From positions 11,541,047 through 11,601,913 of the forward strand of contig NC_057719.1 in assembly GCF_004010195.1 (NCBI RefSeq): DNA of 60,867 nucleotides, in the 5' to 3' direction. The stretch's first letter is position 1; every line of letters begins with the position of its first letter. Below are positions 9,197-38,379 of the stretch, one piece after another. The translations under genes were made by a program, and so were the position numbers. Source of the DNA: Chiloscyllium plagiosum (Eukaryota). Below the pieces are notes generated by a model that worked only from the letters and a program-made list of their open reading frames with translations, did not search any database and had not been told where the DNA came from.

Positions 9197-9575
9197 CCAA
9201 CTAGCCACGAAACGACATGACCAGCTATCCTTAGTAGCCACACACGCACAGATGACAAGCAACATGAGTTCGACTGGGACAACACTACTATTATAGGACA
9301 AGTCAAACAGAGAACAGCCAGGGAATTCCTAGAGGCATGGCACTCATCCACAGATTCTATCAACAAACACATCGACCCGGACCCAATATACCGACCATTG
9401 CAGCGGACAGCTGGAACTGACAACCGGAAGCGGCAGAGACAAACCACTATAAATGCCGGAGGAAAAATCACAGAAGCGCTTCACAGGAGGCTCCCAAGCA
9501 CTGAGGATGTCACCTAGACAGGGGATGAAACGTCTGCAATACAAATTCCCAGCTCGGCAATCAGAACCACAACAA
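9197..9575 (+). mobile_element. Penelope-like element 3' fragment (GIY-YIG C-terminal part plus pLTR), family C
   Basis: QLATKRHDQLSLVA..H...HEFDWDNTTIIGQ...AREFLEAWHS..SINKHID; followed by TATAAAT and a hammerhead. Confidence 0.85.
9498..9537 (+). ncRNA. Minimal hammerhead ribozyme motif (family C)
   Basis: GCA-CTGAGGA-T-GTCACC TAGACA GGGGAT-GAAA-CGTC-TGC. Confidence 0.8.
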
Positions 9576-9839
9576 TAATCAATTGTGTCACTATCACTGA
9601 AAATCCCACCATCAAAATCCTGAGAGTTATCATTCACCAGAAACTGAACTGGACCAGCTAAATAAATAATGTGGCTATGAGATCAGGTCAGAGCCTGGGA
9701 ACTCTGCAGGAAATAATTTACTTCCTGACTTCCTAATATGTCCTCCACCTACAAGGCTCAAGTAAAACATGAAATGCAATACTCTCCACTTACCTGAATG
9801 AGTGTTGGTCCAACAGCATTCAGAATAGCAATGAATTAA

Positions 9840-10115
9840 ATGATCTTGTTATCTGTTTTTAATAATGATAGATGTTAGGCAGCATATCAAGGCGAATTCC
9901 TCTGCTCACCTTTGAAATTGGGCCATGGTTTGTTTCACATCCATCTAAGAAAACAGAGAGGTTTAGTTTAAAACCTCATTCAGAAGACATCACCTCCAAC
10001 CAGGCAGCACTCCATTCAGTGCTACATTGGAATGTCAGTCGAAAATTTGTACTCAAGACTTCAGTGTGGAAACAAAACCCCTTGATTCATAGGCAAATGT
10101 GCTGTCCACTGAGTG
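9840..10115 (-). mobile_element. DeuSINE/SacSINE1-like old SINE
   Basis: GCAGCACTCCATTCAGTGCTACATTGGAATGTCAG...TGTACTCAAG, homologous to 18100-18455; family name recalled from resemblance. Confidence 0.5.
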
Positions 10116-11359
10116 TCACTTTATCCTTGTCACAAAATGTCAGTGCAGAAGAGTAAGTATTGCCAATTCCAGCCAATGATCTGATTAGTGTTGCACCTAT
10201 TGCCCTGATGAACAGTGTGCCCTGGGTCAACTCAAACCATTGTTCGGAAATTGGGGCTCATTAGTCTAAGGACATTTGAACCACATCAACTCAACCTCCT
10301 TAACAGTTACTGCACTAAATCGAATTTAAAATGGGAAGCACTTAGGGATGTTTTGATGCATTCAAGCACTGTATAATTGCAAGTGGTATTTTTATCTTCA
10401 GCCAGTGATCTGAGCGGTGTGAAGAATATTTTGATCAAAGACAAGTTTGCTTCCAATGGCTAATTGCAAGGGAATTGTCTCATAAATGATATTCCAATGA
10501 GGCCACAGCCATGGTATCCATTAGCAACCTGTTTTGATCATTTTATGTGAGACATCCCATTAATGAAACCATTGATTTTGTGCAGTGCTATGTAATTTTG
10601 GAAGAAGGTGTTCATGGGTCCCCTGCTGGGTCATCACCCTTTTTACAACAGGGCATTCCCCAGGAAGGAGTGCTCATCCTGGGAAATGTGTGCAGGCCAG
10701 ATGGTCAATGTCTTTCCCAGGCCAAGCCAGACCCATCTCATTGGATTATAGCTCCTTTTACCAGGACCACAGAAAAAGTAAAATGGGGATCATTTCCTTG
10801 AGGTTGACAAATCAGTAACAATAAGTCATGGATTGATTGTCCAGGGAGGAGTTCAGTTCTAATAACCTTTTTCTACGATACATGGAGTGTTTTGACTACA
10901 TGCTTTTGGGACAGAAACTGTAACATTATTCAAACAGGACTTTGGAAAACACAGAGAGCTAGGATTATGGTGGAAGAATCATCTCACAATGGAGGCAAAT
11001 TTGTCAAAGTCTCTTTCTATGTTAAGATTTCTGTGATTGTAACCTCAGAAAAATGCCCCAACAATATTTGTATGTTATTTTACCATTAGGTATTGCCTGG
11101 CTTCCATGGGGTAGACCAACAGTTAAGAGCCAGACTAAGGTTCGGTCTGTGCTATGGGTCCATGCTCCTTGGGAACTGGATTGCAATTGGTCAAACATTG
11201 TTAAAGTAAACCCTTAAATCAACTAGAATCTTCCACGTGAGTGCGAGTTGATAGTTGTGACTGATCTTTGGTGCTCAGTGATCTATGATTATTGGCATGA
11301 ATACTAGTGCATCAACTACCATTGTAAGTATATAAAATTCGACAGTGTATTTCTATATG

Positions 11360-11458
11360 GGACGGCTGATGAAGGGTTTAAGCCCGAAATGTCAATTCTT
11401 CTGCTCCTCGGATGCTGCCTGACCGGCTGTGCTTTTCCAACACCACATTCTTCAGCAC
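11360..11458 (+). mobile_element. PLE family A single-arm element with hammerhead core
   Basis: CTGATGA-A-GGGT TTAA GCCC-GAAA-TGTC at 11366; 14-bp TSD TGTATTTCTATATG at 11346-11359 and 11459-11472. Confidence 0.8.
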
Positions 11459-11564
11459 TGTATTTCTATATGATGTTTTTGAAACTTGAATTGAGTGTCA
11501 TTCACCACTACACTGAATTAGCACAGACACCAAACTTTCTGCTTGCTCATAATCAAAGTTGCCG

Positions 11565-11940
11565 TGATGTGGAGATGCGGGGATTGGACAAAGTCCACAT
11601 CACTCGGTTGTAATCCAACAGGTTTATTTAAAATCACAAGCTTTTGGAGCGCTGCTCTTTCATCAAGTGAAGTAGAGGGAGATGCACAGGCACAGAATAC
11701 AGAGGCGGAGAGATAATGGCAAGATAATTCTAAGTAATTAAGAGTGCCAACAGATCTACTCACACTATTTGTACTTAACTGTTGACACTCTTAAATACCT
11801 GGGATTGCCATTATCTCTCCACCTATTTATTCTGTGCCTATGCGCCTCCACTTCACCTGAAAAAGGAGCAACATTCCAAAAGCTTGTGTATTTAAATAAA
11901 CCTGTTGGTCTATAACCTGGTGTTATGTGACTTCTGACTA
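11565..11940. mobile_element. PLE family B long inverted-repeat element, decayed
   Basis: Arms CCAACAGGTTTATTT...GGAGCGCTGCTC.TTCATCA and CACCTGA..AAGGAGC...AATAAACCTGTTGG are reverse complements. Confidence 0.75.
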
Positions 11941-12039
11941 TGATCAAAATTCACTGCTCCATTGAGCGTGCTGCTAGCATTTGAAGTTAAAAGAACTAAG
12001 TGTTCAAGAAAATGATAGATATTCCAGTTATAAAGACCA

Positions 12040-12625
12040 AGAGGAGTTATAGAATCACATATTGCAAAAGTGGCCCTTCAGCCCATCAGGTCTGCACCCA
12101 CATGTGAGAAACACCTGATCTTCAACCTGATCCTATTTACCAGCCCTTGGCCTATAACCTGAATGTTACAACTTGCCAAGTGCTCATCCAGGTACTTTTT
12201 CAAGGATGTGAGGCAACTTGTCTCTACCACCCTCTCAGGCAGCGCATTCCAAACTGTCACAACTTTCTGGGTGAAAAAGGTTTTCCTCACACACAATGCC
12301 TCACTTTGAATCTGCGCCTCGTCGTAATCGACCCTTCAACTAAGAAGAACAGTGGCTCCTTGTCCACTCTGTCCATGCCCCTCATAACTTTGTACACCTC
12401 AATCAGATCACCCCCTCAGTCTTCTATGCTCCAATGATAACAACCTAGGCTTTTGCCACTTTTCCTCATCTCTTAAATATTCCATCCCAGGCTGCATCCT
12501 GGTGAATTTACTGTGCAAACCCTCCAAGTGTGATCACACCCTTCCTGTAATGTGTCGACCAGAATTGCTTACAGTACTCTAGCTCTAGTCTCACCAAAGC
12601 TCTGTACACTTTCAACATGACCTAA
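12040..12625 (-). mobile_element. Older CR1 3' fragment
   Basis: ORF: FFTQKVVTVWNALPERVVE...KKYLDEHL. Confidence 0.8.
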
Positions 12626-12865
12626 GCAGTCTTAGCAATGGAATGTATCCAATATTCTTCATTAAAGCAAACTACATTACCAAAAAAAACGCAAAAGAAT
12701 CTTACCCACGCAATGCTTATAATCGAATTGATGTGGACTTGTCCAGAGGCCAGAACACCCTGCTCTGCCTCAGCTTCTCATTGACTAATCATTGTCTTCC
12801 CCCAGCTTGCTAAATTTCCACTGGAAGTAAGCTGTACTTCCACTGTTGCTATTGGTAATGTCGAA

Positions 12866-13925
12866 GACAGAGGGTGGTGTTGGAAAGTTGCTTTTCAGAT
12901 TGGAGGCCTGTGACCAGTGGTGTGTCACAAGGATTGGTGTTGGGTTCACTGTTTTTTGTCATTTATATAAATGATTTGGATGTGAACATAGGAGGTATGG
13001 TTAGTAGGTTTGCAGATGGCACCAAAACTGGAAGTGTAGTAGACAGCGAAGAAGGTTATCTCAGAGTACAATGGGATCTTGATCAGATGGGCCAATGGGC
13101 TGAGGAGTGGCAGATGGAGTTTAATTCGGATAAATGTGAAGTGCTGCATTTTGGAAAGGCAAATCAGGACAGGACTTATACACTTAATGGTAAGGTCTTG
13201 GAGAATGTTGTTGAACAAAGAGACCCTGGAGGACAGCTCCATAGTTCCTTGAAAGTGAAATTGTAGGTAGGTAGGATAGTGAAAAAGGCGTTTGGTAAGC
13301 TTTCCTTTATTGGTCAGAGCATTGACGATAGGTGTTGGGTGGTCATGCTAAGGCTGCACAGGACATTGGTTAGGTCACTTTTGGAATATTGCAGGCAATT
13401 CTGGTGTCCTTCCTATTGGAAAGATGTTGTGATATTTGAAAGGGTTTAGAAAAGCTTTACAAGGATATTGCCAAGGTTGGAGGTTTGAGCTATAGGGAGA
13501 GGCTGAATAGGCTGGGGCTGTTTTCCCTGGATCATCAGAGGCTGAGGGGTGATCTTATAGAGGTTTATAAAATCATGAGGGACGTGGATAGGGTAAGTAA
13601 ACAAGTCTTTTCCGTAGGGTGAGGGAGTCCAAAACTACAGGATGTAGGTTTAAGGATTGAGGGGAAAGATATAAAAGGGACCTAAGGGACACCTTTTTCA
13701 CACAGAGGGTGGTGTGTATACCAAATGAGCTGCCAGAGGAAGTGGTGGAGGCAGGTACAGTTACAATATTTATAAGGCATCTGGATGGGTATATGAGTAG
13801 GAAGGGTTTAGAGGGATATGGGCTAAATGCTGGCAAATGAGACTAGATTTATTTTGGATATCTGGTTGGCATGGATGAGTTGGACCAAAAGGTCTGTTTC
13901 TGTACTGTACAGCTCTATGACTATT
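12866..13925 (+). mobile_element. CR1/HER1 LINE 3' fragment
   Basis: VTSGV.QG.VLG..FVIYINDLD...FAD.TK, WQMEFN.DKCEVLHFG; CTCTATGACT tail. Confidence 0.9.
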
Positions 13926-14008
13926 CTCTTTGCACACTAAGTAGCAATGCATTTTATATTATCCAGGCTCCAGAAAATGATCAGTTTGTCAACTGACAAA
14001 CATCAGAT

Positions 14009-14211
14009 TCTAACAGATGAAAAGCTTAACAGACAATCAATTTTTCAATGTATAATTTCAGTTACATCACAATGCAAATTTTTGCTATAAATTCTGTGTT
14101 ATGATCAAGCCCTCCACAATCACCTGATGAAGGAGTGTCGCTCCGAAAGCTAGTGTGCTTCCAATTGAACCTGTTGGACTATAACCTGGTGTTGTGTGAT
14201 TTTTAACTAAC
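14009..14211 (+). mobile_element. PLE pLTR-derived element, family B
   Basis: TATAAAT at 14086, hammerhead at 14121; 14-bp TSD GACAAACATCAGAT at 13995-14008 and 14212-14225. Confidence 0.85.
14121..14155 (+). ncRNA. Minimal hammerhead ribozyme motif (family B), core intact
   Basis: CAC-CTGATGA-A-GGAG TGTCG CTCC-GAAA-GCTA-GTG; predicted cleavage after A14152. Confidence 0.85.
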
Positions 14212-14326
14212 GACAAACATCAGATATGTGTCATGTTTTCCACACCATTTTGATCAGTTAACTTATGAACCTTTGTTTGTGTTTCTTGGAAAGGCACTTA
14301 TCTCTTGCCGTTAATGAACTTCAACA

Positions 14327-14612
14327 GGGTGGCACAGTGGCTCAGTGTTTAGCACTGCTGCCTCACAGTGCCAGGGAGCCAGGATTGATTTCAGCTTCAG
14401 GCGACTGCCTGGGTTGAGTTCACACCCTCCCCATGTGGGTTTCTGCCAGGTGCTCCAGTTTCCTCCTAGAGTCCAAAAATGTGCAAGTTAGATGGATTAG
14501 CCAGGGTGAAATGGAGGGTTATGGGGATAGGGTAAGGAGCTGAGATGGGTGGGATGCTCTTTCGGGAAGTCAGTGCAGACTTGATGGGCCAAATGGCCTG
14601 TAGGGACTCTAT
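14327..14612 (+). mobile_element. HE1-type SINE
   Basis: GGGTGGCACAGTGGCTCAGTG head through GGCCAAATGGCCTG tail. Confidence 0.8.
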
Positions 14613-15089
14613 AAAACTTTAGCTTGTTGTCACTGTTTGCTACTTATAGGTTATCCAATCAACTATATGATATTCACACAGTACAATTTCATGACAATCA
14701 GAAATTCAGCTGATAAATGGTCCATGTTATGATATCTGATTCATTATGTTTTAGTTTAAATAAAACTTCAGTTTGTCCAGAGGTAATGTGACAGCTTAGC
14801 TCATTATTACTTGTCGCAAATAAGTACACACATTTCTTTGGTCCAACACACACACTTTAAAAACCACCGATTGCTTCCCAATCACTCAATCATCATCACA
14901 TTTCATATCTTATCTCCTTTCCATTTCATTCTAATATAATTTCATTTTACTTCATTTCAGATAATCCAGCAAATTTTAGATTTATATCTACCCTATCTGG
15001 GAAACTTCTACTTGTGTCTTCCTGTCCATTTGGATGGGGCTAAGGTAGGCTGGGAGTAGGTGGGATGTGGTGGCAATAGACTCTTGCAG

Positions 15090-15225
15090 AAGACACTGGA
15101 GAAACTCAGCAGGTCTGACAGCATCTGTGGAGAGAGAAACAGAGTTAAGATTTCGAGTTTGGTGTGACCTTTCTTCGGAACTTTATTTCAGATCTCCAGC
15201 ACCTTTGCAATATTTTTCTTACATT
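15090..15225 (-). mobile_element. PLE-derived element, family E-like, decayed
   Basis: CTGGAGAAACTCAGCAGGTCTG...TTTCGAG...GACCTTTCTTCGG; minus strand gives a decayed C.GAAGA..GGTC...CGAAA core. Confidence 0.55.
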
Positions 15226-15427
15226 TCAGAGATACAAAGAGTAGAGGTGGCTGGGGTACTCTTCAGGGGGTCAGTATGGACTTGATGGGCCAAATGGCCT
15301 GCTTTCACACTGTATGGATTCTATAGTTCTCAATGGATTGCCACTTAGCTGAGAAGAACAACATCAGTGAGGAATCAGTGCAGAAGGAGAAAGCTACATT
15401 TTACTTAAGAAGTCTAATGCCTATTAT

Positions 15428-15735
15428 ACAATCCCTACAGTGCAGAAAGAGACCATTTGGCCCATCAACAATCCTCCAAAGAATATCCTACCCATAGTCC
15501 TGTGTGGGGTTTTTAACCACGGCTAACACACCTAATCTCACGGCAAATTCGGGATACTTTCGCATGACCAATCCACCTAACCTGCACAGTTTCAGACTGT
15601 GGGAGGAAACTGGAGCACCCAGAGGAAACCCACACATACACAGGGAGAAGATGCAAACGCCACACGGTCACCCAAGGCTGGAAATGAACCTGGTGCTGTA
15701 AGGCAGCAGTGCTAACCACTAAGCCACCGTGCTAC
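15428..15735 (-). mobile_element. HE1-type SINE
   Basis: GGCAGCAGTGCTAACCACTAAGCCACCGTGC head (minus). Confidence 0.8.
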
Positions 15736-16572
15736 CTAATTTATTTCCATTCAATCCTTATTCATAAAGAAAAGAAAATTTTATTTCCTCCCTCTTCCGC
15801 GGTCATCTCTGGCTGAGCTGGTTTGAACCCAGAGATTAACCATATTTGGTAATAAAGTAATAAAGTATCTTTGTTACTGAAGCATGAAAGAGCTGCGTTC
15901 ATCTTACACAGCAGAGCTAGTCAGCCTCAGTCCCTGTGGAAAGTTCAAATTTTCTGCATGGATCATGAGGAATGAGCTCGAAACATAAAGTTCAATTTGC
16001 TCAAAATGACATTCTCTAATGTTGTAGCATGGAGCAACGAATTGTGACCACTGATTTCAATTCCTCCTTCATGGAGAGAAAGAAGTCACATTAAGGGCTG
16101 TGTCCACGTGACATTTGAACAAACCTTGCTCATTTTTAAATCAATACCAGAGATTGATTGTGGGTTCTAGAAATAAAAGGATGTTCGATGAGACAGAGGA
16201 TAATGCATGCAGGACACATAGTCAGACAGGCCAATTGGACTAAAAGGATCTGTTAAAACGAATACAGAATACAAGCAAAGGCAAACAGATGTCCAGACAA
16301 TATCCAGATGGCTTTTCTCAAATGATTCATGTGATATCCATCTTGTAACAGAAGGGCCAGAGGTACTTGCACTGAACAGATAGGGTTCCTTAAGTTTTAT
16401 GTTTGAATGATGGAGGACCTACATTTATATATCCCCTTTTATGATTTCAAAATATCCCAAATTGCTTTTAGAAACATAGAAAAGAGAAGCAGGAGTGGGC
16501 CTTTTAGCCCGCTCCACCATTTAATATGATTACAGCTGATCGTCCAACTCAGTACCCAGTTCCTATTTTCTC

Positions 16573-16690
16573 CTGACGAAGGAGCAGTGCTCCAAAGCTT
16601 GTGATTTCAAATAAACCTGTTGGGCTATAACCTGGTGTCATGTGACTTCTAACTTTGTCCGCCTGAGTCCAACACCGGCACCTCCACATC
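16573..16690 (+). mobile_element. PLE family B fragment
   Basis: CTGACGA-A-GGAGC AGT GCTCC-AAAGCTTGTG...AATAAACCTGTTGG. Confidence 0.75.
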
Positions 16691-17222
16691 ATCCCCTCCA
16701 CAGTCAAACCACTTTACCTCAGATAAGGAGACCAAATTTGTACACAATACTTTAGAAGCATAGAATATAGAAGCAGCCCTTCGAGCCTGTTCCACCGTTT
16801 AATATGATCACAACGGATCATCCAACTCAGAACCCTGTTCCCACTTTATCCCCAAACTCTTTGATCCCTTTATCCTTAAGAACTACATCTAAGTCCTTCC
16901 TGAAAACATTTAATGCTTGGCCTCGACCACTTTCTGTGGCAGGGAATTCCACAGGAAGAAATTTCTCCTCATCTCAGTCCTAAATGGCTTATTTTGTATC
17001 CTTGGACAGTGACCCCTAGTTCTGGACTCCCCGGTCATTGGGAACAACTGTCCTCATACACCATGTCTTGTCCCATTAGAATTTCATAGGTTTCTATGAG
17101 ATCCCCCTCATTCTTCTAACCCCAGAGAATATAGTCTTAACCAATCCAGTCTCTCTTTGTGCATCAGTCCTGTGATCCCAGGGATCAGTCTGGTAAACTT
17201 TCATTTATCCCCTCCATAGTCA

Positions 17223-17365
17223 GAGTCAGAAGTCACACTTCACCTGATGAAGGGGCAGTATTCCAAAACCTTGTGATTTCAAGTAAATCCATTGGACTAT
17301 AACCTGGTGTCGTGTGACATCTGACTTTGTCCACCCCAGTCTAACACTGGCACCATCACATCGTG
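17223..17365 (+). mobile_element. PLE family B element
   Basis: CACCTGATGAAGGGG... core; 13-bp TSD CCCTCCATAGTCA at 17210-17222 and 17366-17378. Confidence 0.8.
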
Positions 17366-17625
17366 CCCTCCATAGTCAAAACAACATTCCTCAGATAAGG
17401 AAATCAAAATTGTACACAGTACTCCAGGTATAGTTTCCTTAAGGCCTTACATAATTGCAGCAAGACAACCCTGCTCCTGTATTCGAATCCCCTCACTCTG
17501 AAGGCCAACATCCTATTTGCCTTCTTCACTACCTGCTGCACCTTTATCCTTACTTTCAGTGACTGGTGTGGAGGATATCAAGATCTCTATGCTCCTCCTC
17601 CTTTGCTAATCTATCTCCATTCAGA

Positions 17626-17850
17626 TAACAGGAGCAAAATACTACAGCTGCTGAAATCTGGACTGAAAACAACAAATGCTGGAGATCACAGCGGGTCAGA
17701 CAGCAGCGTGGAGAAAGAGAACGCTAACATTTCGAGTCTCGATGACTCTTCATCAGAGCTCTTATGAAGAGTCATCTAGACTTGAAACATGAGCTTGCTC
17801 TCTCTCCATGGCTGCTGTCTGACCCGCTGTGATCTCCAACATTTGTTGTT
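17626..17850. mobile_element. PLE inverted-repeat element, family D
   Basis: About 90-bp arms centred on palindromic GAGCTC (17756-17761); flanking direct repeat TCCATTCAGA at 17616-17625 and 17851-17860. Confidence 0.85.
17723..17759 (-). ncRNA. Minimal hammerhead ribozyme motif (family D)
   Basis: Minus strand: GCT-CTGATGA-A-GAGTC ATCGA GACTC-GAAA-TGTT-AGC. Confidence 0.85.
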
Positions 17851-17907
17851 TCCATTCAGACAGTGGTCTGCATTCCTGTTTCTGCAATCGCAGTTGATAA
17901 CCTCGCA

Positions 17908-17989
17908 GATCAGAGTCTAGATTAGAGTGGTGCTGGAAAAGCACAGCAGGGCAGGCAGCAGGAACCTGATGAAGTGCTTTTGCCCGAAG
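17908..17989 (+). repeat. 82-bp copy of 18550-18631 flanked by a 47-bp direct duplication
   Basis: Identical to the neighbouring family A copy; direct repeats at 17861-17907 and 17990-18036. Confidence 0.85.
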
Positions 17990-18099
17990 CAGTGGTCTGC
18001 ATTCCTGTTTCTGCAATCGCAGTTGATAACCTCGCATTTATCCACATTATACATCATCTACCATGCACTTTCCCACTGGCTCAACCTGTTCAGATTGTT

Positions 18100-18455
18100 C
18101 AGCAATGGGGTAATTTTGAAGTGTACAGTTGTACTGTAGGAACCCAATTTTTCACACAGCAAACTGCCACCAGCAGCAATAAGTTAAATGATCTGATAAT
18201 CTATTCCTTTCGATTATTTGATTGAGAGATATCCATTGACCAGGTCACCCTTGCACTTCCTGAAGGAGTGCTGTTTTATGCCCAACTGAGAGGGTAGATG
18301 AAGCCTCAGTTTAACATCTCATTCAAATGGCAGTGCCCCCCTCAGTATGGTAATTGTTGGCACTCCAGTTTGTCATTCTCAAGTCCTGGAATGACACCCA
18401 AACAACAACCTTCCAACTTAGAGGTAACGATGTTAACCAATGAACTATAGCTAAC
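18100..18455 (-). mobile_element. DeuSINE/SacSINE1-like old SINE
   Basis: GCCTCAGTTTAACATCTCATTCAAA...CTCAAGTCCTGGA...ACAACCTTC. Confidence 0.5.
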
Positions 18456-18457
18456 AT

Positions 18458-18980
18458 GGAGGGAAATGATGGTACTGTGGAAGTGTCACTAACAATCCAA
18501 GGACTCAGGCTAATACTCTTGGGCAAAAGTGAGGACTGCAGTTACTGGAGATCAGAGTCTAGATTAGAGTGGTGCTGGAAAAGCACAGCAGGGCAGGCAG
18601 CAGGAACCTGATGAAGTGCTTTTGCCCGAAGCGTTGATTTTCCTGCTCCTCGGATGCTGCTTGACCTGCTGTGCTTTTCCAGCACCACTCTCATCTAGAC
18701 TCTAATACTCTTGGGGACATAGGTTCAGATAAATGCATGGCAACTGGTGCCATTTAAGTTCAATTAATAAAAATCTGGAATTAAAAGCCAGTAACCATGA
18801 CCAGTTGGATTGAGTAACTTCCAGTTGGGAAGAAAATCTATCATGAACATGGTCTGACCTACGTGTCCGTAACTTCACTGACACCTCTGAAATGTTTGTG
18901 CAGGCCACTCAGTTCAGGAATAATTAGACATGGGCAGCAATAACCAGCCTTGCCAGTGACACCCACATCTTAGAAAAAAT
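18458..18980 (+). mobile_element. Second tRNA-SINE type, interrupted by a PLE hairpin
   Basis: AATAAAAATCTGGAATTAA...GCCTTGCCAGTGACACCCACATC tail. Confidence 0.6.
18524..18701 (+). mobile_element. PLE family A inverted-repeat element
   Basis: CTGATGAAGTGCTTTTGCCCGAAG core (mutated); 14-bp TSD CTAATACTCTTGGG at 18510-18523 and 18702-18715. Confidence 0.85.
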
Positions 18981-18996
18981 GTAATCAGCAGCCACA

Positions 18997-19215
18997 GGGC
19001 AGCACAGTGGCTCAGTGTTTAGCACTGCTGCTTCACTGTGCTAGGGACCTGGGTTCCATAATGAACCCTATACTAATAGGGACCCATAATGTCCAGGGAT
19101 GTGCAGGTTAAATGCATTAGTTAGGGTAGTAGGGGAATGGGTCTGGATGGTAGCTCTTCAGAGGATCAGTGTGGACTTGTTGCGCCAAATGGCCTGTTTC
19201 CAATCTATAGGGATT
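18997..19215 (+). mobile_element. HE1-type SINE, internally deleted
   Basis: GGGCAGCACAGTGGCTCAGTG head and GGCCTGTTTCCA tail. Confidence 0.75.
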
Positions 19216-22715: not shown

Positions 22716-22857
22716 GAACCTACAGGAGTTTGGACACCTGTCCTAATATTCCCCTTTGAGGTTCAGTATATCAGTTCATTATAGCAGCATGGGATGTTTT
22801 ACCAGAATATCAGGTGTTATATGAATGCTAGTTGTTATTGTTGCAGTAGTGGATGAG

Positions 22858-22945
22858 TGCTGAAAATGTGTTGCTGGAACAGCGCAGCAGGTCAGGCATC
22901 ATCCAGGGAACAGGAGAATCGACGTTTCGGGCATAAGCCCTTCTT
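22858..22945 (-). mobile_element. PLE family A single arm
   Basis: GAAAATGTGTTGCTGGAA...GAATCGACGTTTCGGGCATAAGCCCTTCTT. Confidence 0.8.
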
Positions 22946-25670: not shown

Positions 25671-25676
25671 TCTTAT

Positions 25677-28039: not shown

Positions 28040-28323
28040 GCAGATCAGGCATGAGGGGCTGGGTGGCCTCATCCTGTTCATCATTCGTACAGTTCATCAT
28101 TTTGAGGAGTGTGAGATGTAGCCTCACTCTAGAGACCTGAGCACAGCACTCAGACTGTCACTCAATTGCCAACACCGAGGAAATTTGGCGTTAGCTGGGC
28201 CAGTAGCCGTGCTTGGGACAGGGGCAGGGTCATAGGGACAAGGTCTGGGTGAGGAGCAGTATTCCTGAGTTCAATTTCTGGTCTCTAGTTAGAAGTGAGA
28301 GGAGATGATAAACTGAGCTCCCA
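28040..28323 (+). repeat. 284-bp donor segment duplicated at 29431-29714
   Basis: Sequence reads identical by eye, GCAGATCAGG...GAGCTCCCA. Confidence 0.92.
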
Positions 28324-28479
28324 TCCATTCTCAAAAAACAGCTAACACTTACACCTCATCAATGTCATGAAATTATCCAGTTGCTATCACGTTGCTGCTT
28401 GTGGGATCCTGGTGTACCCAAATTGGCTGATGTATTCACCCATTCACCACAGTGATTACATTTCAAAATCTTGGATCAA

Positions 28480-28625
28480 CGTCCTGGAATTCCTCCCTAA
28501 GGGCTTCGGGGTCTGCCTGCATCAAATGGGCTGCAGCGGTTTAAGAGGCAGCTCACCACCACCTTCTCAAGGGCATGTAAAGACTGGCAATAGGCCCAGT
28601 GATACCCACATCCTATAAAAATAAC
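28480..28625 (+). mobile_element. 3' tail of a CR1/L2-clade LINE (tail resembles the second SINE type)
   Basis: CTGCAGCGGTTTAAGAGGCAGCTCACCACCACCTTCTCAAGGGC...CCCACATCC. Confidence 0.6.
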
Positions 28626-29048
28626 TACTTCAATGTCGGTAAAGAGACAGCTGGACTTTGTGAGAGATGCTAGATAAATGCAAGGTTTGTTTTGGTCAGT
28701 GAACATTAAGTTTGCAATTGGAAGAAGGTTGCAACGACATCAAAGAATCATATTTCTATCTTCTAATCAGAGGAAGTAACTCAGCTGTAAAACTGCATCA
28801 CAGCCCCCAATAATTAATACTGTCTAAAATCAGATGGAAAGTCCATCGACAGTGACATTCATGGGAATTGCGAAATGTGCTGCGCTAGCTTGAGGTATTA
28901 GTTTGACTCAGTTTGGTTAGATGCTCATCTCTAACTGAAGATTCATGGGTTCAAGCCCCACCAGGTGTTGCACTGTTAGACTTCCACACTCTTTTGGGTA
29001 AGGCCTTGATCCCAGGATCTGTAGCCTCTTCTAATGGGCTGAGTGACT

Positions 29049-30126
29049 TTTTTGCAAGGTCTGTGAAGGTTTGTAGCTCAGGTTGAGGTTTAGGGTGTAG
29101 GTTTGCTCGCTGAGCTATAGGTTTGATATCCAGACATTTCATTACCTGGCTAGGTAACATTGTCAGTGGCGACCTCCAAGTGAAGTGAAGCTGTTGTCTC
29201 CTGCTTTCTATTTATATCTTTCTCCTGGATGGGGTTCCTGGGGTTTGTGGTGATGTCATTTCCTGTTCGTCACAGTCGAAAGAAAGGACAATGGAGAACT
29301 ACAAACCTGCGTATACAGAAAACCGACAAACACTGACCAAATACTTAACTACACCAGCAACCATCCCAACACACACAAACAAAGCTGTATCAGAACACTA
29401 TTCCAACGAGCCACCACACACTGCAGCACTGCAGATCAGGCATGAGGGGCTGGGTGGCCTCATCCTGTTCATCATTCGTACAGTTCATCATTTTGAGGAG
29501 TGTGAGATGTAGCCTCACTCTAGAGACCTGAGCACAGCACTCAGACTGTCACTCAATTGCCAACACCGAGGAAATTTGGCGTTAGCTGGGCCAGTAGCCG
29601 TGCTTGGGACAGGGGCAGGGTCATAGGGACAAGGTCTGGGTGAGGAGCAGTATTCCTGAGTTCAATTTCTGGTCTCTAGTTAGAAGTGAGAGGAGATGAT
29701 AAACTGAGCTCCCAAAGTTAGCCACCAGGATACACGAACACCAGCTAGCCACAAAAAGACACAACCCTCTCTCCCTCTTAGCCCCACACACGGATGAAAA
29801 AAACCACCATTTCAACTGGGACAACACATCTATCCTGGGACAGGCTAAGCAAAGACATGCCAGAGAATTCCTAGAGGCCTGGCACTCCAACCACAATGCC
29901 ATAAACAAACACATAGATCTAGATGCCATCTATAAGCCCCTCAGAAAACAAACAGGAAATGACATCACCACAAACCCCAGGAACCCCATCCAGGAGAAAG
30001 ATATAAATAGAAAGCAGGAGACAACAGCTTCAGTTCACTTGGAGGTCGCCACTGATGATGTTACCTAGCCAGGTAATGAAATGTCTGGATATCAAACCTA
30101 CAGCTCAGCGAGCAAACCTACACCCA
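29049..30126 (+). mobile_element. Penelope-like retroelement, 5'-truncated, inverted pLTR + RT thumb + GIY-YIG end + pLTR (family C)
   Basis: Inverted pLTR at about 29068-29270; VYRKPTNTDQILNYTSNHPNTHKQSCIRTLFQRATTHCS; RIHEHQLATKRH...HHFNWDNTSILGQ..RHAREFLEAWHS; 13-bp TSD GGGCTGAGTGACT at 29036-29048 and 30127-30139. Confidence 0.92.
30049..30088 (+). ncRNA. Minimal hammerhead ribozyme motif in the Penelope pLTR
   Basis: CCA-CTGATGA-T-GTTACC TAGCCA GGTAAT-GAAA-TGTC-TGG. Confidence 0.85.
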
Positions 30127-30789
30127 GGGCTGAGTGACTGTTGAGGGTCCCTTTGGCTCCACATTAATAAAAACTCAAAGCTTATCAAGTGATATGACAG
30201 AGAAGGCTCCCACCCAGACTATCATGCCAACTCTCCTGATATCTTTGCCAACATGCCTCCCTTGAACAGGCCCAACAATTAAGAAACCTCATTATTTCCT
30301 TCCTTCCTATCTCAAAGTGGTTGGCTGTTTGCTGGGGTTATGATTTATGACAGAGGGGCTCCAACACGCTAACTGGATCAATAACAGAGGAGAGGCAAGT
30401 TCCATCCTTGGCCGATGCTGGCACTTTCTACAAGGGGAGCTGGATAGCAATCTTTACTATCCACCCTACTGTGGCATGAAAGAAAGAATTGCATTTATAC
30501 AGTGCCTTTCACAACCTCAGGATGTTCCTGGTGCACTTTCCAGTCCAATGAAGTACTTTAGAAGTAGAAAACACTGCAGCCAATCTCATAAAAATGACCA
30601 GATATGCATTTTTTGTAAAGTGATGTTAGCCAAGGAACTGATGTCAGTGTTGCAAGGATCTGAAAGGTTATTACCAAAGAATAGCTTCAACACCACCCAC
30701 TATAACAATCTCATTCAGACTGGTTTAAAGGGAAGGACAGCTTAGGACATTCAAGGATGTCCAAGTTTCTCCTCAGAATCTATTTTGGA

Positions 30790-31110
30790 ATTTTTCATGG
30801 AATGTGGGAGTTGCTGACAGCATTAGTTGTTCATACCTAATTGCCCTTGATCTAAGTGACAGAGTCAACCAAATCGCTGTCTGTCACATGTAAGCCAGAC
30901 CAGGTAAGAATGGAAGATTTCCTTTCCTCATGGGCTTTAGGGAACCAGATAGGCTTTTAATCACAATCAATAATGATTTCATAGTCACCATCATTGTTAA
31001 CTCACTTCAAATTCCAGACTTGTCGATTGAACTTAAATTTATGCCAAGGTGGGATTTGTACACGTGACTCCTTGGTATTAGCCCGATCCTTTAGATTACA
31101 TTATGATTGT
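30790..31110 (-). mobile_element. Second tRNA-SINE type, decayed
   Basis: GTCACATGTAAGCCAGACCAGGTAAG...GAACCAGAT. Confidence 0.6.
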
Positions 31111-31189
31111 GACACCTTTCTTTAAAGTGATGTTGGGCCAGACACTGGGAATCTCTGAAACACTATCCATCATATATCAATCACAAATA

Positions 31190-31860
31190 TATAAAATAGT
31201 TGCGACACTAGACCTTTCGGTTCTTTAAAGCTTCTCTGCTATTCAATAAAATCGTGGCTAATCTGTTGATATTCTATATTCCACATTCCCATCTAACTTG
31301 ATAGCCCATGGTTCTCTTACCCAATGAGAATCTATCCATCGCCACCTTAAAAATAATCAATGACTCCACCTCCACTACCAACCTGAGGCAGAGAGCACCA
31401 AAGTCCCATGATCCTCTGACAGAAAATATTTCCACTTGTCTCACTCCTCAAGGGCGACCCCTAATTTTAAGCAGCAATCTTTTTCTCATCCGCCTTGTCA
31501 AAATCATTCAGAATCTTTTACTCTTTAATCAATGTGTACTCTTCTAAAATCTAGTGGATGTAAGCCCAAAATGTCCAATCTTTCCTCATAACACAATGTA
31601 CTTATTCTGTGTATCAATCTAGTAAAACTCCTTTGAGCTGTATCCAACATATTTACATCCTCAAACAACTGAACAAAATATTTGCAATTTGGTGTCAACA
31701 ATGCCTTGTATAAGTGAAGTATTGCATCCTTTTACGTTCAATGCCTTACATAATAAAGAACAGCATCCCATTAGTCTTCTTAATTATTGGCTGTACCCTG
31801 AATACTAAAATTTTGTGACTCAGGTACTAGAATGTCTAGATTCCTGTGCATCTCAATTAA
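31190..31860 (-). mobile_element. Old CR1 fragment
   Basis: AATCTATCCATC.CCACCTTAAAAATA...CCAATCTTTCCTCATAA...CCCATTAG. Confidence 0.6.
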
Positions 31861-32267
31861 TCAGTGTAACTTATACATCATTTCTATCATGTAATAAACT
31901 ACATATTGTTTAAGGCAAGAACTGCTTTTTGTTAGTCAAGCAAGTGGATTCCTCTGCCGCACCAAACTAAGCAGGTCCTGCAGATCCCTCCTGTAAAGGA
32001 GGATGGTGATAGCAGACCTAGCCCCATAGTGAGCCATAGGGCAGACAGTCCTGTGCCACCCAGTGGATAGCAGTGAGAAGTGTTCTCAGAACAGTCAATT
32101 CCTGTGCTCTGCTTTGAAAGACTGAAATCTTTTAAGTCCACCCAAGGAGACAGAGATGTCTTTGGTGAAGCAACTCATCCAAAAACAAAAGTAGGATCCC
32201 TTCTAGTATTTCACTGAGCCCCCAGCTTCAATGATGATCTCCAATCTCCTGAGCGGAATTCACATGT

Positions 32268-32770
32268 AGAGTCATAATGTGCTACAACACGGAAACAGAC
32301 CCTTCAGTCCAACTCGTCCATGCCAACCAGATACCCAAAATTTATCTAGTGCCATATGCCAGCATTTGGCCCATATCCCTCCAAACCTTTTCTATTCATA
32401 TACCCAGCTGAAAATGTGTTGCTGGAAAAGCACAGCAGGTCAGGCAGCATCCAAGAAGCAGGAGAATCGACGTTTCGGGCATGAGAAGAAGGGCTTATGC
32501 CCGAAACATCGATTCTCCTGCTCCTTGGATGTTGCCTGACCTGCTGCACTTTTCCAGCAACACATTTTCAGCTCTGATCTCCAGCATCTGCAGTCCTCAC
32601 TTTCTCCTATTCATATACCCATCCAGATGTCTTTTATATGTTGTACCAGTCCCTTTAGCAGTTCATTCCATACTTAGATGATCCGCTGCATAAAAGGTTT
32701 GCCCCTTAGGACTCTTTTAAATCTTTATCTTCTCCCCTTAAACCTATGCCCTCTAGTTCTGGACTCCCCC
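32268..32770 (-). mobile_element. CR1/HER1 3' end, interrupted by a PLE hairpin
   Basis: GGAAACAGACCCTTCAGTCCAAC...CTTAAACCTATGCCCTCTAGTTCTGGACTCCCC. Confidence 0.85.
32407..32606 (+). mobile_element. PLE family A inverted-repeat element
   Basis: Inverted arms; 15-bp TSD CTATTCATATACCCA at 32392-32406 and 32607-32621. Confidence 0.88.
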
Positions 32771-33635
32771 CACCCCACACTAAGGAATCAGAAAACATCT
32801 TTAAAGCCTTTCACCAGAAATTGCATTGTCCATGCAAATATGTTGCAGAGAATTTCTTCTGTCCATCAATTGCATCCTCTTTAACATCTTAATAGGGGTA
32901 CTTATCTGGGCCATCACTGAGGCTGGGAAAAATACTCTTTCCCTATAAACAAAAAAAAATTGCCAAACACTTCTTCACGAAAACAGTGACATCTTTAAAG
33001 TGGCTTTATGTCTGCAACTATTCATCTTGCTTCATTTCATCTAATAATCCACCAAAGATATTGCATGTTACATTCTAAGTGAATATGGGTCACAGTTACC
33101 ATTAAGATCACTGAAGCATATGCTGTCTGTGTGATAGGTAATTTGCTAGACTTTCACTAGTCTGCCCTTGAATTGACTTCAGATTAATTAAAACTATCTT
33201 TTTGAGAAGGGGAATATATGCTGAACTTGATTGGAAATGATTTACTCCAATATTTTATTACTTTAATTTTCTTTTCTGAGTGATCTAGTTAGGTCATATA
33301 TTGAAATACTAAAACATTGATTGAGTTTTTGCATCAACGTTATCTGCTTTACTTTACAAGGGTGAAAAAGACAACTTTTTATTAATTCACCCATGGGTCA
33401 TGGGCATCACTGGCTGTGCTAGTATTTATTGCCCAACCCCAGTTGCCCTAGACTGGCTGTGAATGACAGACAAGTCAAAGCAAAATTCTACAGATGCTGC
33501 TAAAGTGTCCAACAAAGCTCAGTGCAAGATGGGGGAAGGCTTCACTTCCTGCTCAGGCCCTTTACAGGCTGTAGCACTCAAAATCACATTCCATAATTTC
33601 AAAGCAAAACCTCTGTCTTCCATTTTTACAGAACA

Positions 33636-34062
33636 GGGAGAAAGTGAGGAGTGCAGATGCTGGAGATCAGAGTCGAGAGTGTGTTGCTAGAAAAGCACAG
33701 CAGGTCAGGCAGCATCCAAGGAGAAGGAGAATCGATGTGTCGGGCGTAAGCCCTCCTGTGCTTTTCCAGCACTACACTCTCGATTCTGATCTCCAGTATC
33801 TGCAGTCCTCACTTTCTCTCAGTTGATTTTAACCTTACTGCGAAGCCTCTTCCAAGGGTGCCCACCTTGAAGAAGTTCTCCTCCTTTCTCTACAAAGATC
33901 TCAGTGAGTCCCTCTCTCACTGTACCCACCAAGTCCTCTCCTCTGCCCTGAAGTTTTTCAGCCACGTTCTCAAGCAAACTCGCTACCACAGCCATATCTC
34001 CTTCCTCAGTGTCTGCCTACGGTAAGAAGGGCTTATGCCTGAAACATCGATTCTCCTGCTCC
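33636..34062 (+). mobile_element. PLE family A hairpin followed by a probable PLE ORF N-terminus and another pLTR piece
   Basis: Hairpin 33636-33820; frame from 33858 ...SSALKFFSHVLKQTRYHSHISFLSVCLR; AAGAAGGGCTTATGCCTGAAACATCG at about 34024. Confidence 0.65.
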
Positions 34063-35215
34063 CCAGAGATAATGGAGGCGTTAGTGGTGATCTTTCAAGA
34101 ATCACTGGAGTCAGGAAGGAATCCAGAGGACTGGAAAATCTGTAAAGAAACTCCTCCCCCCCACATCCCCAAGCCAAATCAGCCTGACCTCAGTCACTGG
34201 TACGATATTGGAGCACATTGTGAAGGATGAGATTTCTGGATACTTGGAGCATGGTAGACAGGGCAAAGTCAACTTGGTGTCATCAAGGGGAGGTCATGCC
34301 TGACAAATCTGCTAGAATTATTTGAGGAGGCAATGATCAGGTTACACCAAGGAGAATCAATGAATGTTATCTACTTGAACTTCAAGAAGGCTTTTGACAA
34401 GGTGCCGCACAGGAGGCCACTGAGTTAAGATAAGGGCCCATGGTGTCAGAGGCAAGGTGCTAGCGTGGTTTGAAGCTTGGCGGTCTGGCAGAAAGCAGAG
34501 AGTGGGGATAAAAGGGCCTTTCTCAAGATGGCATCCGGTGACAAGTGGTGTTCCGCAAGGGTCAGTGTTGGGACCACAACTTTTCACTTTATACATTAAC
34601 GATCTCAATGAAGGAACTGAGGGCATTCTGGCTAAGCTTTCAGACAATACAAAGATAGAGGGCATTCTGGCTAAGCTTTCAGACAATACAAAGATAGGTA
34701 GAGGGACAGGTGGCATTGAGGGGGTAGGGAGGCTGCAGAAGGATTTGGACAGGTTAGGAGAGTGGGCAAAGAAGTAGCAGATAGAGTACGAACTGAGGGC
34801 ATTCTGGCTAAGCTTTCAGACAATACAAAGATAGATAGAGGGACAGGTGGCATTGAGGGGGTAGGGAGGCTGCAGAAGGATTTGGACAGGTTAGGAGAGT
34901 GGGCAAAGAAGTAGCAGATAGAGTACAACGTGGGAAAGTATGAGGTTATGCACTTTGATAGAAGGAATAGAGGCATGGACTATTTTCTAAATAGGCAGAA
35001 AATTCAGAAATCTGAAGTGCAAAGAGACTTGGGAGTTCTAGTCCAGGATTCTCTCAAGGTAAACTTGCAGGTTGAGTCAGTAGTAAGGAAGGCAAATGTA
35101 ATGATAGCAATTATTTTGAAAGGACTTTAAAGTAAAAGCAGGGATGTACTGCTGAGGCTCTATAAGGCTCTGGTCAGACCACATTTGGAGTACTGTGCAC
35201 AATTTTGGGCCCCAG
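34063..35215 (+). mobile_element. CR1 RT fragment (left half of the host element; continues at 46274-46660)
   Basis: [57 protein letters not shown]. Confidence 0.88.
34614..34926 (+). repeat. Nested tandem duplications (137 bp and 39 bp) within CR1
   Basis: GAGGGCATTCTGGCTAAGCTTTCAGACAATACAAAGATA occurs three times. Confidence 0.9.
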
Positions 35216-35414
35216 AAAGGTAAGTTCTCCATTTAAAAAGTTACCTCGCAGTAGCCTTCATTTCTGCAGCGGGAGCAGCAAGAGAGGAAACCAGGGTGCT
35301 GTTGGGAAGGTAAATTCTTCATTTAAAACTTACCAAAGCGCAGAGGCTTCTGGGATATTTTTTCCCCTACAGGTATATAATTTGGGTATTTCCTAAACCC
35401 AAGAGCCTACGCCT

Positions 35415-36140
35415 TGTTACGACCCAAAGTAAACCCCCTCTTCCCTCAGTATTTTAAACCAGCAACACAGAAAAGATTTACCCCGTGCGGTAATCTGTGA
35501 AAATTTGTGAGGCCAAGAGTTATTCCCAAAGGTCACTTATTAAAGTAAAAATTAACAATTTTATTTCTTGAAGTGTAACAGAGAATAATTAACTAACAGC
35601 TATTTACAACTTCTTTCTCTAACCTATCTTTAACCTTCCCCTTCTACAATACTTACCCAACAAAACCCCCTGATTAAGATTTCCCAAAAATTCAAATTTC
35701 AAAACCAGACAGCTGCCAAATCTTCTCTTTATATCTTCCTCAGTCTTCTTCTTAGGGGTTTCTGTTTCACAGGTCACTGATCAATAAAGTTACCTTTAAG
35801 AGAACTGTTTTCTGGGCACTCTGTACATGCTGATAGCTTGGCAGTTCTCTCCCAACTGTTCAATTTTCCCAGTCTTATACCCCCAAAGCATCAGATTGTG
35901 TCATTGCCTTTTAATATTGTCAATATACTAAATTCAAACTTTATTGGAGTTTGGTTTTATTTGAGATATAATTTAAACTGATTGGCCTAATTCAAATTTG
36001 CTTTCATCTCCAGGCAACCAGCTACACTGGCTGACCAAAAGGTTACATTATATCTTGTTCAGATCACTTGGTGCTGTCAGGTAGTTCTGCTAGTCTTTAA
36101 CTTTCTTAAGAGAACAGAACACTTCTACACCTTCATAACA
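35415..36140 (-). repeat. 3' LTR (726 bp)
   Basis: TGTTACGA...TCATAACA; PPT (minus AATGGGGGAGG) at 36141-36152. Confidence 0.9.
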
Positions 36141-36507
36141 CCTCCCCCATTAAGAAAAAATGAACCATATTAATGAAAAGATGGCTCTTTTTATCTATTC
36201 TTTAAATACGTTACCCTAACGTACTGATAACTTTAATCTAAGTTCACTTTAACTTCATCCTATATTCCTATATATATAAAACATTAAATAAATACAAATC
36301 TGATCTAAACTTTATTAGTTAAATCCGTGATAACGCATCTGCGATTATGTTCTTACAACCCGCAACATGTACGATTTTAAAATTAAAAGTCTATAACATA
36401 AGACTCCAATGAAATAGTCTCATATTCTTGTCTTTAAAGCATTCTAAGAATGTAAGCAGATTGTAATCCGTGTACACAACTGTCTCCAACACACTATTCG
36501 TGACATA

Positions 36508-37094
36508 AGACCATAAGAAATAGGAGTGGAAGTAAGGCCATTTGGCCCCACTCCACCATTCAATCAATGCTGATGGGCATTTCAACGACACTTACCTGCA
36601 CTCTCCCCGTATCTCTCAATTCCTTGCGAGATTAAGAATTTATGAATCTCTGCCTTGAAGACATTTAACATCCTGGCCTCCACTGCGCTCCTTGGCAATG
36701 AAGAAATGTCTCCTCATTTCCATTCTAAATTGACTCCCTCTAATTCTAAGGCTGTGCCCACGAGTCCTAGTCTCCCCGCCTGATGGAAACAATTTCCCAG
36801 CGTATGCCCTTTCTAAGCCACGCATTATCTTGTAAGTTTCTATTAGATCTCCCCTCAACCTTCTAAACTCGAATGAATACAATCCCAGGATCCTCAGCCG
36901 TTCATCGTATGTTAGGCCTACCATTCCAGGGATCATCCATGTGAATCTCTGCTGGACACGCTCCAGTGCCAGTATGTCCTCCCTGAGGTGTGGGGCTCAA
37001 AACTGGACCCAGTATTCTAAATGGGCCTCGCCAGAGCTTTATAAAGTCTCAGTAGCACATCAGTGCTCTTACAGTCCAACCCTCTTGATATAAA
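36508..37094 (-). mobile_element. CR1 3' fragment inserted in Gypsy RNase H
   Basis: LGLYSFEFRRLRGDLIETYKI; flanking TGACATA at 36501-36507 and 37095-37101. Confidence 0.88.
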
Positions 37095-37782
37095 TGACAT
37101 ACACATTAAAATGTTGTAAGGCCAGTACAAAACACAATAGTTCTTTTTCGATCGTGGAGTATTTCCTGTGGTGGGTGTTGATCTTCTTTGAAAAGTAGCC
37201 AACTGGCAGTTCAATCCCATTCTCATCCTCCTGTAGGAGTACAGCTCCAACTCCTATGTCACTAGCATTGATGGCGACTTTGAAAGGTTTTTGAAAAGTT
37301 TGGTGTCGCTAAAACTGGTTTGGTTGTTAATATTAATATCAACCTCTTTCTTCGAGGTTGATCGTGGAAATTCCTCGATGGCCTTCGTCTTTGCATTCTG
37401 TGGGGTCAACCTTCCATGACCGATGTTATGTCCCAAGACTGTCACCTCTGCTTTCGTGAATTCCGTTTTATTTTAAGTTTATCACCAGATTTGCTTCTCG
37501 TAGTCGTTCAACGAGCTCTGCCAACTGCACCATGTTATCTTCCCAGGACTTACTAAAGATCACTACATCATCCAAATAAATTGCACAGTTTGTTATACCA
37601 GCCACAACTCTAATCATAAGTGTTTGGAATGTGGCGGGTACATTCTTCATTCCAGAGGGCATCACTTTAAACTGATACAGACCTTTTGGGGTTACAAACG
37701 CAGACATTTTTTTCACTGTGTCTGATAAAGGTACCTGCCAGTAACCACGCATTAAGTCCAACTTGGCGATATGACTGGCTTG

Positions 37783-37870
37783 AAATTGTGTTGCTGGAAA
37801 AGCGCAGCAGGTCAGGCAGCATCCAAGGAGCAGGAGAATCAACGTTTCGGGTATGAGCCCTTCTTCAGGA
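37783..37870 (-). mobile_element. PLE family A single arm with hammerhead, inserted in Gypsy RT
   Basis: Minus: TTC-CTGAAGA-A-GGGC TCAT ACCC-GAAA-CGTT-GA; 14-bp TSD ATATGACTGGCTTG at 37769-37782 and 37871-37884. Confidence 0.9.
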
Positions 37871-38379
37871 ATATGACTGGCTTGTCTGACTTTCTCGATG
37901 CAGTCCTCCAATCTAGGAATTAGATATGAGTCTAATTTTGTAACAGTGTTGACCTTCCGATAATCCATGCGAACTAAGACAATCGGTGAACTCCACTTGC
38001 TCTGGCTGGGTTCGATGATATCCTCATCGAGCATGGCCTCCACCTTCATCTGGACCTGTCTGGCTTTGAAAGGATTAAGCCGATGCGGTGTTGTTTTATC
38101 GGACCAGCATTCCCTCCGTCAACTTCATGTACAATAGCATTAGTCCTCCCCATCTCATTCTTACATACGTCCTTATACTGCAGTAACAAATCTTTCAACT
38201 GCGTTCTTTGCCCCTGAGACAGATAGCTTACTAATCTATCCCACTCCTCAAGGACTTCTCCATTTTTAAATCTATTTTGAGGCACATCAAAATTCATATC
38301 ATCTGGATTTGATTCCTCACTCTGTGTGGCAGTAACTAACACCTGTTTCTCCAGTTCTTTCTCTCTAGTTTAATATGGT

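Follow-up and report, generated by a model that had tools for sequence, protein, structure and literature searches.

Covarying stems in minimal hammerhead motifs of Penelope-like elements from the shark Chiloscyllium plagiosum

A stretch of 60,867 nucleotides (nt) from the genome of the shark Chiloscyllium plagiosum (contig NC_057719.1, positions 11,541,047 to 11,601,913), called the window below and used for all positions given without a locus name, contains dispersed motifs with the fold of the hammerhead ribozyme. Judged from their sequence, they are minimal type I hammerheads lying in the pseudo-long terminal repeats (pseudo-LTRs) of three Penelope-like lineages. Stems I and II covary between subfamilies, and these matched changes were probably fixed by selection on weakly self-cutting RNA in a few active Penelope-like sources, the scattered copies merely decaying. 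In the mechanism that we propose, the fold would cut after nucleotide 17 only as a dimer or together with the element's protein, and cutting would serve to process the element RNA. It would mostly be uncut RNA that is reverse-copied into DNA and, in the Neptune-type families defined below, the template probably had its 5' end at the first stem I base.

By themselves the minimal hammerheads of animal Penelope elements show hardly any activity, and in one in vitro system insertion proceeds without them. At least 15 well-sampled variants in the present genome form a natural series, in which stem changes are matched, wobbles stand as intermediates and one core swap is compensated, and thereby a panel for cleavage assays. 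The type of system has already been described. Minimal hammerhead ribozymes were reported in the pseudo-LTRs of metazoan Penelope-like elements, with their families, compensatory changes and a U3-A8 core (Cervera and De la Pena 2014, PMC4209133), so that covariation as such will not surprise a specialist. The present analysis contributes a quantified shark panel, a vertebrate U3-A8 family and a junction map; the panel and the map bring further tests, not another kind of system. Table S1 of that study, as available, is without cartilaginous fish, and its accessible text holds neither a formal covariation test nor 5' junction mapping, both of which were made here. A literature search returned no report of such shark motifs and nothing beyond the papers cited on U3-A8 or on a link to start sites; subscription journals and supplements may hold more.

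Covariation of stems I and II

The earlier note on this DNA had read five stem I pairs and four stem II types from the window, and all are present as written. The stem II types are GGGC/GCCC, GGAG(C)/(G)CTCC, GAGTC/GACTC and GTTACC/GGTAAY; the stem I pairs belong to the following motifs.

9498..9537, plus strand: minimal type I hammerhead of subfamily C1 (Poseidon-type), stem I GCA/TGC; predicted cut after 9534
30049..30088, plus strand: hammerhead motif of C2 (Poseidon-type), stem I CCA/TGG, with a G10.1-U11.1 wobble in the source; predicted cut after 30085
14121..14155, plus strand: hammerhead motif of B1 (zinc-finger linker type), stem I CAC/GTG, helix III tetramer AGCT, A17; predicted cut after 14152
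17723..17759, minus strand: hammerhead motif of D1 (Neptune-type, homologue of family A), stem I GCT/AGC; predicted cut after 17726
37838..37871, minus strand: hammerhead motif of A1, stem I TC/GA; predicted cut after 37841

A stem-aware motif scan of the window, with a score of at least 31 counted as a hammerhead-like site, returned 13 sites against 0, 0, 2, 0, 0 and 0 in six dinucleotide shuffles. Scores of 27-29 were mostly noise (39 observed, 13-30 per shuffle). Rfam assigned no hammerhead family to the window motifs, neither at the gathering score nor at E values up to 10, and its miRNA matches in the window are the fold-back insertions. Seeds from the scan were extended into profiles of motif plus 3' flank, which were searched in the window (33 copies or fragments) and in 1.17 Mb of evenly spaced genome stretches (412). 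The density is about 350 copies or fragments per Mb. About 230 per Mb cover the motif, far above the 4,000-9,000 motifs given for coelacanth and Xenopus, which were found with a strict descriptor (PMC4209133). Extrapolation from large contigs only suggests copies of the order of a million in the whole 3.56-Gb genome. By 3' flank columns only, outside the stems, 481 of 482 copies were placed in 17 subfamilies. D2b (8 mixed copies) was removed before all counts, leaving 16; B4 (7 copies, the first 50 flank nucleotides being those of B3) was excluded from the tree simulation, the mutual information and the repeat shuffle test. The C1 and B1 majorities come from 23 and 55 copies, respectively.

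Longer copies extend upstream into endonuclease-type reading frames in all three lineages. Lineage C, which includes the motifs at 9498 and 30049, has reverse transcriptase (RT) and GIY-YIG frames without a CX2-5CxxC zinc-finger linker; longer relatives score E 0.054 for GIY-YIG and E 4e-5 for RVT_1, both under the Pfam cut-off. The upstream frames of A, B and D1 hold a C-X4-CxxC-type linker and CCHH-type residues. Those of A, B and D are endonuclease-like by motif reading and pairwise likeness, an RT was not seen in them, and the A and B frames gave no significant match in a Pfam search. One such frame lies upstream of a B1 motif at genome locus L155. Since a CX2-5CxxC linker before GIY-YIG defines the Neptune and Nematis clades (PMC8557442), lineage C would be Poseidon-type, and A, B and D, placed by their linker and with the B protein frame 29% identical to that of A, would be Neptune-type, Nematis being an alternative. 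Most named relatives of a protein that the elements encode come from sharks, the nearest being those of bamboo sharks (83-90% among the top matches). The copies share 5' truncation, inverted partners and an optional tail of 30-40 nt with Penelope-like elements that encode an endonuclease (EN+).

Over the 50 nt that follow stem I, family A and the family of 17723 (D) share 60-78%, the families of 9498 and 30049 share 60% and C1-C3 share 60-82%, against a shuffled mean of 48.5 and a 99th percentile of 60. The 9498 and 30049 families also resemble each other in their endonuclease tails (69% identity over 83 amino acids), and the B flank is at background level against both other lineages. The flanks, described earlier as largely dissimilar, are therefore so between three lineages only; their homology within lineages (60-82%) argues for three lineages, not five unrelated families.

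Over seven stem pairs in 16 subfamily majorities, 107 of 112 cells are standard pairs. Shuffling the 3' partners leaves 64.5 over all rows and 96.0 within lineages, where 0 of 10000 shuffles reach 107; within a family letter the mean is 102.8 and 28 of 10000 reach it, and slid registers give 30-45. Without B4, 100 of 105 cells are paired, a value reached by 0, 0 and 88 of 10000 shuffles (all rows, lineage and family letter). Nine real A and D copies are 92.6% paired and have double changes at 6 of 9 pairs (reached by 0 and 5 of 500 shuffles, respectively), with a covariation of 0.475 versus 0.256. In a neutral simulation, pairs were evolved on trees built from the flanks of 15 subfamilies: 9 extra Watson-Crick types were observed against a neutral mean of 2.1 (P 1e-4), and 2 unpaired states against 20.8 (P below 5e-5). 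By corrected mutual information, the top 5 of 253 column pairs are all hammerhead pairs, namely 2.3-1.3, 2.2-1.2, 2.1-1.1, 10.2-11.2 and 15.2-16.2, the last entered per lineage from CG, TG and CA counts.

The changes can be followed inside lineages. Among C1-C3, pair 2.3-1.3 is G-C, C-G and U-A, and 10.3-11.3 is C-G, U-A and U-G. Within D, 2.2-1.2 is C-G or U-A and 10.2-11.2 is A-U, G-U or G-C, while 2.1-1.1 and 10.4-11.4 swap C-G for U-A between A and D. Pair 10.1-11.1 is G-C in 14 of 16 majorities and G-U in C2, as the source state, and in B4, where it is probably CpG decay; the unpaired base 9.1 between 9 and 10.1 is A or U in all 16. Helix III is absent. The palindromic positions 15.2/16.2 are CG in A, C and D (inferred from CG, TG and CA counts for D1, D2, D3 and A4) and GC in B. 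This swap keeps a self-complementary tetramer, ACGT or AGCT, that is unable to pair within one motif and thus fits the dimer model of PMC4209133. The claim that the stems covary between families accordingly holds over the 16 flank-defined subfamilies, by shuffles and by tree simulation. The proposal of selection on RNA structure in the active ancestors draws support from both, from the G-U wobbles and from the decay of stems at the flank rate described below; the same conclusion has been published before for Penelope-like elements (PMC4209133).

Several points weigh against this reading. Doubling the branch lengths makes the double-change excess less significant (P 0.01), the unpaired measure still being unreached. 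Mismatches are fixed in some sources (U-U at 2.3-1.3 in four A subfamilies, A-G at 10.4-11.4 in C1), and independent events are few, about nine double changes over three lineages. The origin of the seeds in the motif scan makes comparisons between lineages partly circular. Finally, in searches with a model built from A and D, lineage B scores weakly (E 0.16 and 1.6) and lineage C is missed altogether, so homology of the stems across lineages is not established. It might thus be argued that the covariation is an artefact of choosing unrelated sequences by a motif that contains the stems and of recounting a few inherited changes; the three lineages with unrelated flanks would suit this view, as would the five-row C alignment, which taken alone is borderline (11 of 500 shuffles). 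We regard such an artefact as very improbable, because subfamilies were assigned on 3' flanks outside the stems, D4 was reached through its flank and fails the core of the scan, and both the within-lineage shuffles and the tree simulation still reject chance.

Other constraints on the same letters are, in our view, just as improbable: a coding function of the motif region in lineage C, or hairpins in the DNA that serve integration. The lineage C upstream frame does end at loop II (TAG in 148 of 162 copies); a further frame, begun by an ATG at A9-U9.1-G10.1, reads much the same in C1-C3; and half of the copies (163 of 325) have an inverted partner upstream. However, the change at 2.3-1.3 in C alters the encoded residue on both strands of the stem while the pair is kept, and in the translated copies of A, B and D the motif lies well 3' of the stop codon. 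On the opposite strand, the G-U wobbles of three well-sampled subfamilies (C2, C3 and D4) would read as A-C, which points to sense-strand RNA rather than DNA.

Catalytic core and decay of copies

The CUGANGA and GAAA boxes, U16.1 and H17 are found in all 16 majorities, with 3-8 being U-A in D4. Catalytic positions other than 3-8 are unchanged throughout, and position 17 is C, U or A, never G. The core had been said to stay fixed between families. This stands for positions 3 and 8 in 15 of 16 subfamilies and fails for D4; positions 7, 9.1, 17 and 15.2/16.2 vary as well. In a C1 variant (L310, L311, L314, L323, L324, L328 and L329), positions 7 and 17 are U and the A-G at 10.4-11.4 is mostly replaced by G-G, the internal mismatch of stem II being kept though the letter differs.

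D4 is absent from the window and was recognised by its flank. Among 30 flank-anchored copies, 21 reach position 3 and all 21 have U3-A8; a genome-wide pattern with positions 3, 7 and 8 left open gave 1140 matches, 1051 of them U3-C7-A8, and C3-G8 is absent among the 100 matches listed. The D4 upstream frame ends like other Neptune-type frames. As C7 forms a CpG with G8, loss of G8 followed by compensation at position 3 is a plausible route. The same swap was reported in Schistosoma elements (PMC4209133) and is active in vitro (PMC3088659). D4 loci include L032:4821-4860, L248-L272 and L333-L362, where the palindromic AGCT of stem I often forms the centre of fold-back insertions.

Of the CpG sites in single copies, 24-30% carry a change, against 5-9% of the remaining sites. 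The statement that most core damage is of CpG type is right if C11.1 and ACGT are counted (15 of 23 changes in 16 window copies, 185 of 298 in 203 random copies) and wrong at strictly catalytic positions (49 of 148). In the 30049 family, the T of GGTAAT belongs to the source (31 of 32 copies) and is not decay. The stems show 155 changes against 157.6 expected from the flanks (observed/expected 0.98-1.03). Pairing is therefore not selected in the copies, and selection acted in the source elements. That single genomic copies are under selection as host ribozymes is, of all the explanations considered, the one we find hardest to credit. It could draw on the non-CpG core positions, which change less than context-matched flanks (87 versus 134 expected). 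Yet the deficit lies almost entirely at A residues, and it may come from the choice of copies, which were aligned through the core, and from source variation inflating the flank rates. Only 66 of 219 copies keep core and stems intact, the stems decay neutrally, and flank-anchored C2 copies have no core deficit (15/264 versus 53/960).

Copy junctions and the use of cleavage

The 5' ends of copies were mapped, references being lacking for some subfamilies. In family A, 80 of 128 junctions lie from -12 to +8 of C3 and 4 from -50 to -13. Copies start at the base of stem I in 19 of 36 cases in B and 0 of 26 in C; in D4, 18 of 30 start from -6 to +5, and six of these begin at -4, where stem I has its first base. 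Target-site duplications border 4 of 22 solo copies of A and 4 of 15 of D4, and none of the controls, so at least some short copies are whole insertion events. Copies that include the whole motif speak for templates that were mostly uncut. Two of 26 C copies hinted at starts precisely at the cut, but none of the 60 flank-anchored C1 and C2 copies has such an exact start.

In nine of nine A and D copies the A-U pair 2.4-1.4 is invariant, and A2.4 at the base of stem I sits in what we take to be an initiator-like context. From these two features we infer that the stem I start pile in Neptune-type copies marks transcription start. An extra G before the first base of stem I, as a cap mark, occurs in 7 of 10 D1 copies (P 0.005), 5 of 9 of D2/3 (P 0.06), 6 of 18 of D4, 5 of 33 of A and 0 of 3 of B, a mixed result overall. 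Loose RNA ends at -4 come from genomic junctions that were transcribed and are no evidence of a start site.

A second kind of junction involves U6. A pattern made of the 3' end of U6 and the first letters after the family A cut had four matches (L363-L366, near position 1500), all continuing into A6-type flank at N1.1, the predicted scissile bond. Rfam confirms U6 in two of the four loci, and the other two hold only a short 3' piece. The fusions fit ligation to the 5'-OH that hammerhead cleavage leaves, as in the U6/LINE-1 chimeras formed by RtcB, whose ligation needs such an end (PMC6789731). In both cases the 3' end of U6 is joined to retroelement RNA; the partner here is a Penelope pseudo-LTR at its predicted scissile bond, with ligation as the putative route. 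An inverted pseudo-LTR piece lies upstream of the fusion at L364 and L365, and L366 has two U6 pieces in tandem.

We tentatively propose, as a possibility short of an even chance, that transcription of Neptune-type elements starts at the first base of stem I and that the ribozyme is a switch trimming the capped first 32-35 nt: uncut RNA would have given rise to the hundreds of thousands of short copies that start at stem I, and the 5'-OH of rarer cut RNA would be recorded in the U6 fusions. If this were true, the spread of the U3-A8 family would amount to a natural rescue experiment, in which catalysis, not just shape, was selected in the vertebrate germ line.

On the other side of the balance, starts within 3 nt of the cut are few (5 of 128 in A, 1 of 36 in B, 2 of 26 in C), as they are among the 60 flank-anchored C1 and C2 copies (one, at +2). 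The U6 pattern demanded the N1.1 letters, so the fusions have no denominator. Of two single-cell polyA runs from one sample, the informative one aligned 1803 and 204 reads and had no pile of read starts or ends, at the cut included; the other aligned none.

The fold could instead have been kept as a protein-binding or promoter-linked RNA element, its cutting incidental or lost. This would account for the invariant 2.4-1.4 pair in its presumably initiator-like context and for copies that nearly always include the uncut motif. It would also agree with the reports that a hammerhead mutation in an anole element leaves in vitro insertion unimpaired (PMC11167929) and that Naiad elements thrive without the motif (PMC8557442). 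We nevertheless consider it unlikely: the U3-A8 swap preserves pairing within the catalytic core, all 16 majorities agree at the remaining catalytic positions and have no G at 17, and the U6 fusions lie at the scissile bond. Selection on self-cutting RNA in the sources remains the reading we prefer.

Lineage C can be compared with PAc, the Poseidon element of Anolis carolinensis, whose frame starts at stem II and whose reverse transcription begins from two internal sites; its hammerhead cuts only with protein in vitro and is not needed for insertion there (PMC11167929). C2 copies end near +72 or at +108 to +112 from the ATG, in two 3' end clusters about 36-40 nt apart. Both would have a start codon where stem II begins, a pair of 3' ends separated by tens of nucleotides, and uncut RNA as the main template. 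The activity of PAc was shown experimentally, whereas lineage C is known from sequence alone, a full-length element linking the ATG to the RT frame not having been recovered. Non-LTR retrozymes, reported from the one chondrichthyan genome sampled, also carry type I hammerheads related to pseudo-LTRs (bioRxiv 10.64898/2026.07.22.740005). They are head-to-tail tandem units, unlike the window copies, which are dispersed or head to head; no head-to-tail array of hammerhead units was found in the window. At L064:2200-2600, two A1 copies in the same orientation, 334 nt from each other, may form a short retrozyme-type tandem.

Further copies in the window

The elements around the motifs and the remaining copies are as follows.

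9198..9575, plus strand: 5'-truncated C1 element (ends approximate), with the end of the GIY-YIG frame, the stop codon at loop II and then the pseudo-LTR tail
29715..30125, plus strand: 5'-truncated C2 element (ends approximate) with the endonuclease C-terminus
29130..29169, minus strand: inverted partner of the C2 copy, with damage to core positions 7 and 8
11635..11669, minus strand: decayed lineage B hammerhead motif
11854..11888, plus strand: decayed B2 hammerhead motif, head to head with the copy ending at 11669
16570..16603, plus strand: B2 hammerhead motif, 1 nt lost at G12
17241..17275, plus strand: B2 hammerhead motif, G12 decayed
17758..17794, plus strand: fold-back partner of the D1 copy, the arms joining in the 5' strand of stem I
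15144..15181, minus strand: decayed D2 hammerhead motif, stem I GTT/AAC
11363..11396, plus strand: family A copy whose 5' junction took away the 5' strand of stem I
18605..18638, plus strand: decayed family A copy
22852..22945, minus strand: family A copy beginning inside the core
32398..32585, no strand assigned: family A head-to-head pair, joined within the motif
33659..33756, minus strand: family A copy beginning inside the motif
37769..37884, minus strand: whole A1 insertion (37783-37870) with 14-bp target-site duplications (37769-37782 and 37871-37884) and a 5' junction at the stem I base
2153..2186, plus strand: A6 hammerhead motif, stem I TC/GA, in a fold-back insertion; flank type that of the U6 fusion at L366

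The fold-back insertion of A6 (2059-2299) is bordered by a direct repeat of 16-17 bp resembling a target-site duplication. A segment of about 280 nt that occurs twice (28045-28323 and 29435-29714, ends set by eye) lies between the inverted arms of C2 and may be captured flanking DNA. Pieces of family A flank at 17908-18030 and 18545-18692 are arranged inverted and direct, with an unrelated segment duplicated (about 17862-17906 and about 17991-18037). At 58754-58869, C3-type flanks stand head to head, both starting 3' of the catalytic core, near the cut site. Outside the window, L023:4334-4400 holds one motif related to family A, with a shorter stem II insert and a flank of its own, a single occurrence left unclustered.

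The A1 copy is inserted in the RT frame of fragments resembling the pol region of an LTR retrotransposon (37468-40392, minus strand), with RT and integrase-like frames by motif reading. A fragment resembling a long interspersed nuclear element (LINE) carries tandem duplications of 39 and 137 nt (34619-34926), and the window ends in a minisatellite of 30-31-nt units (60591-60867).

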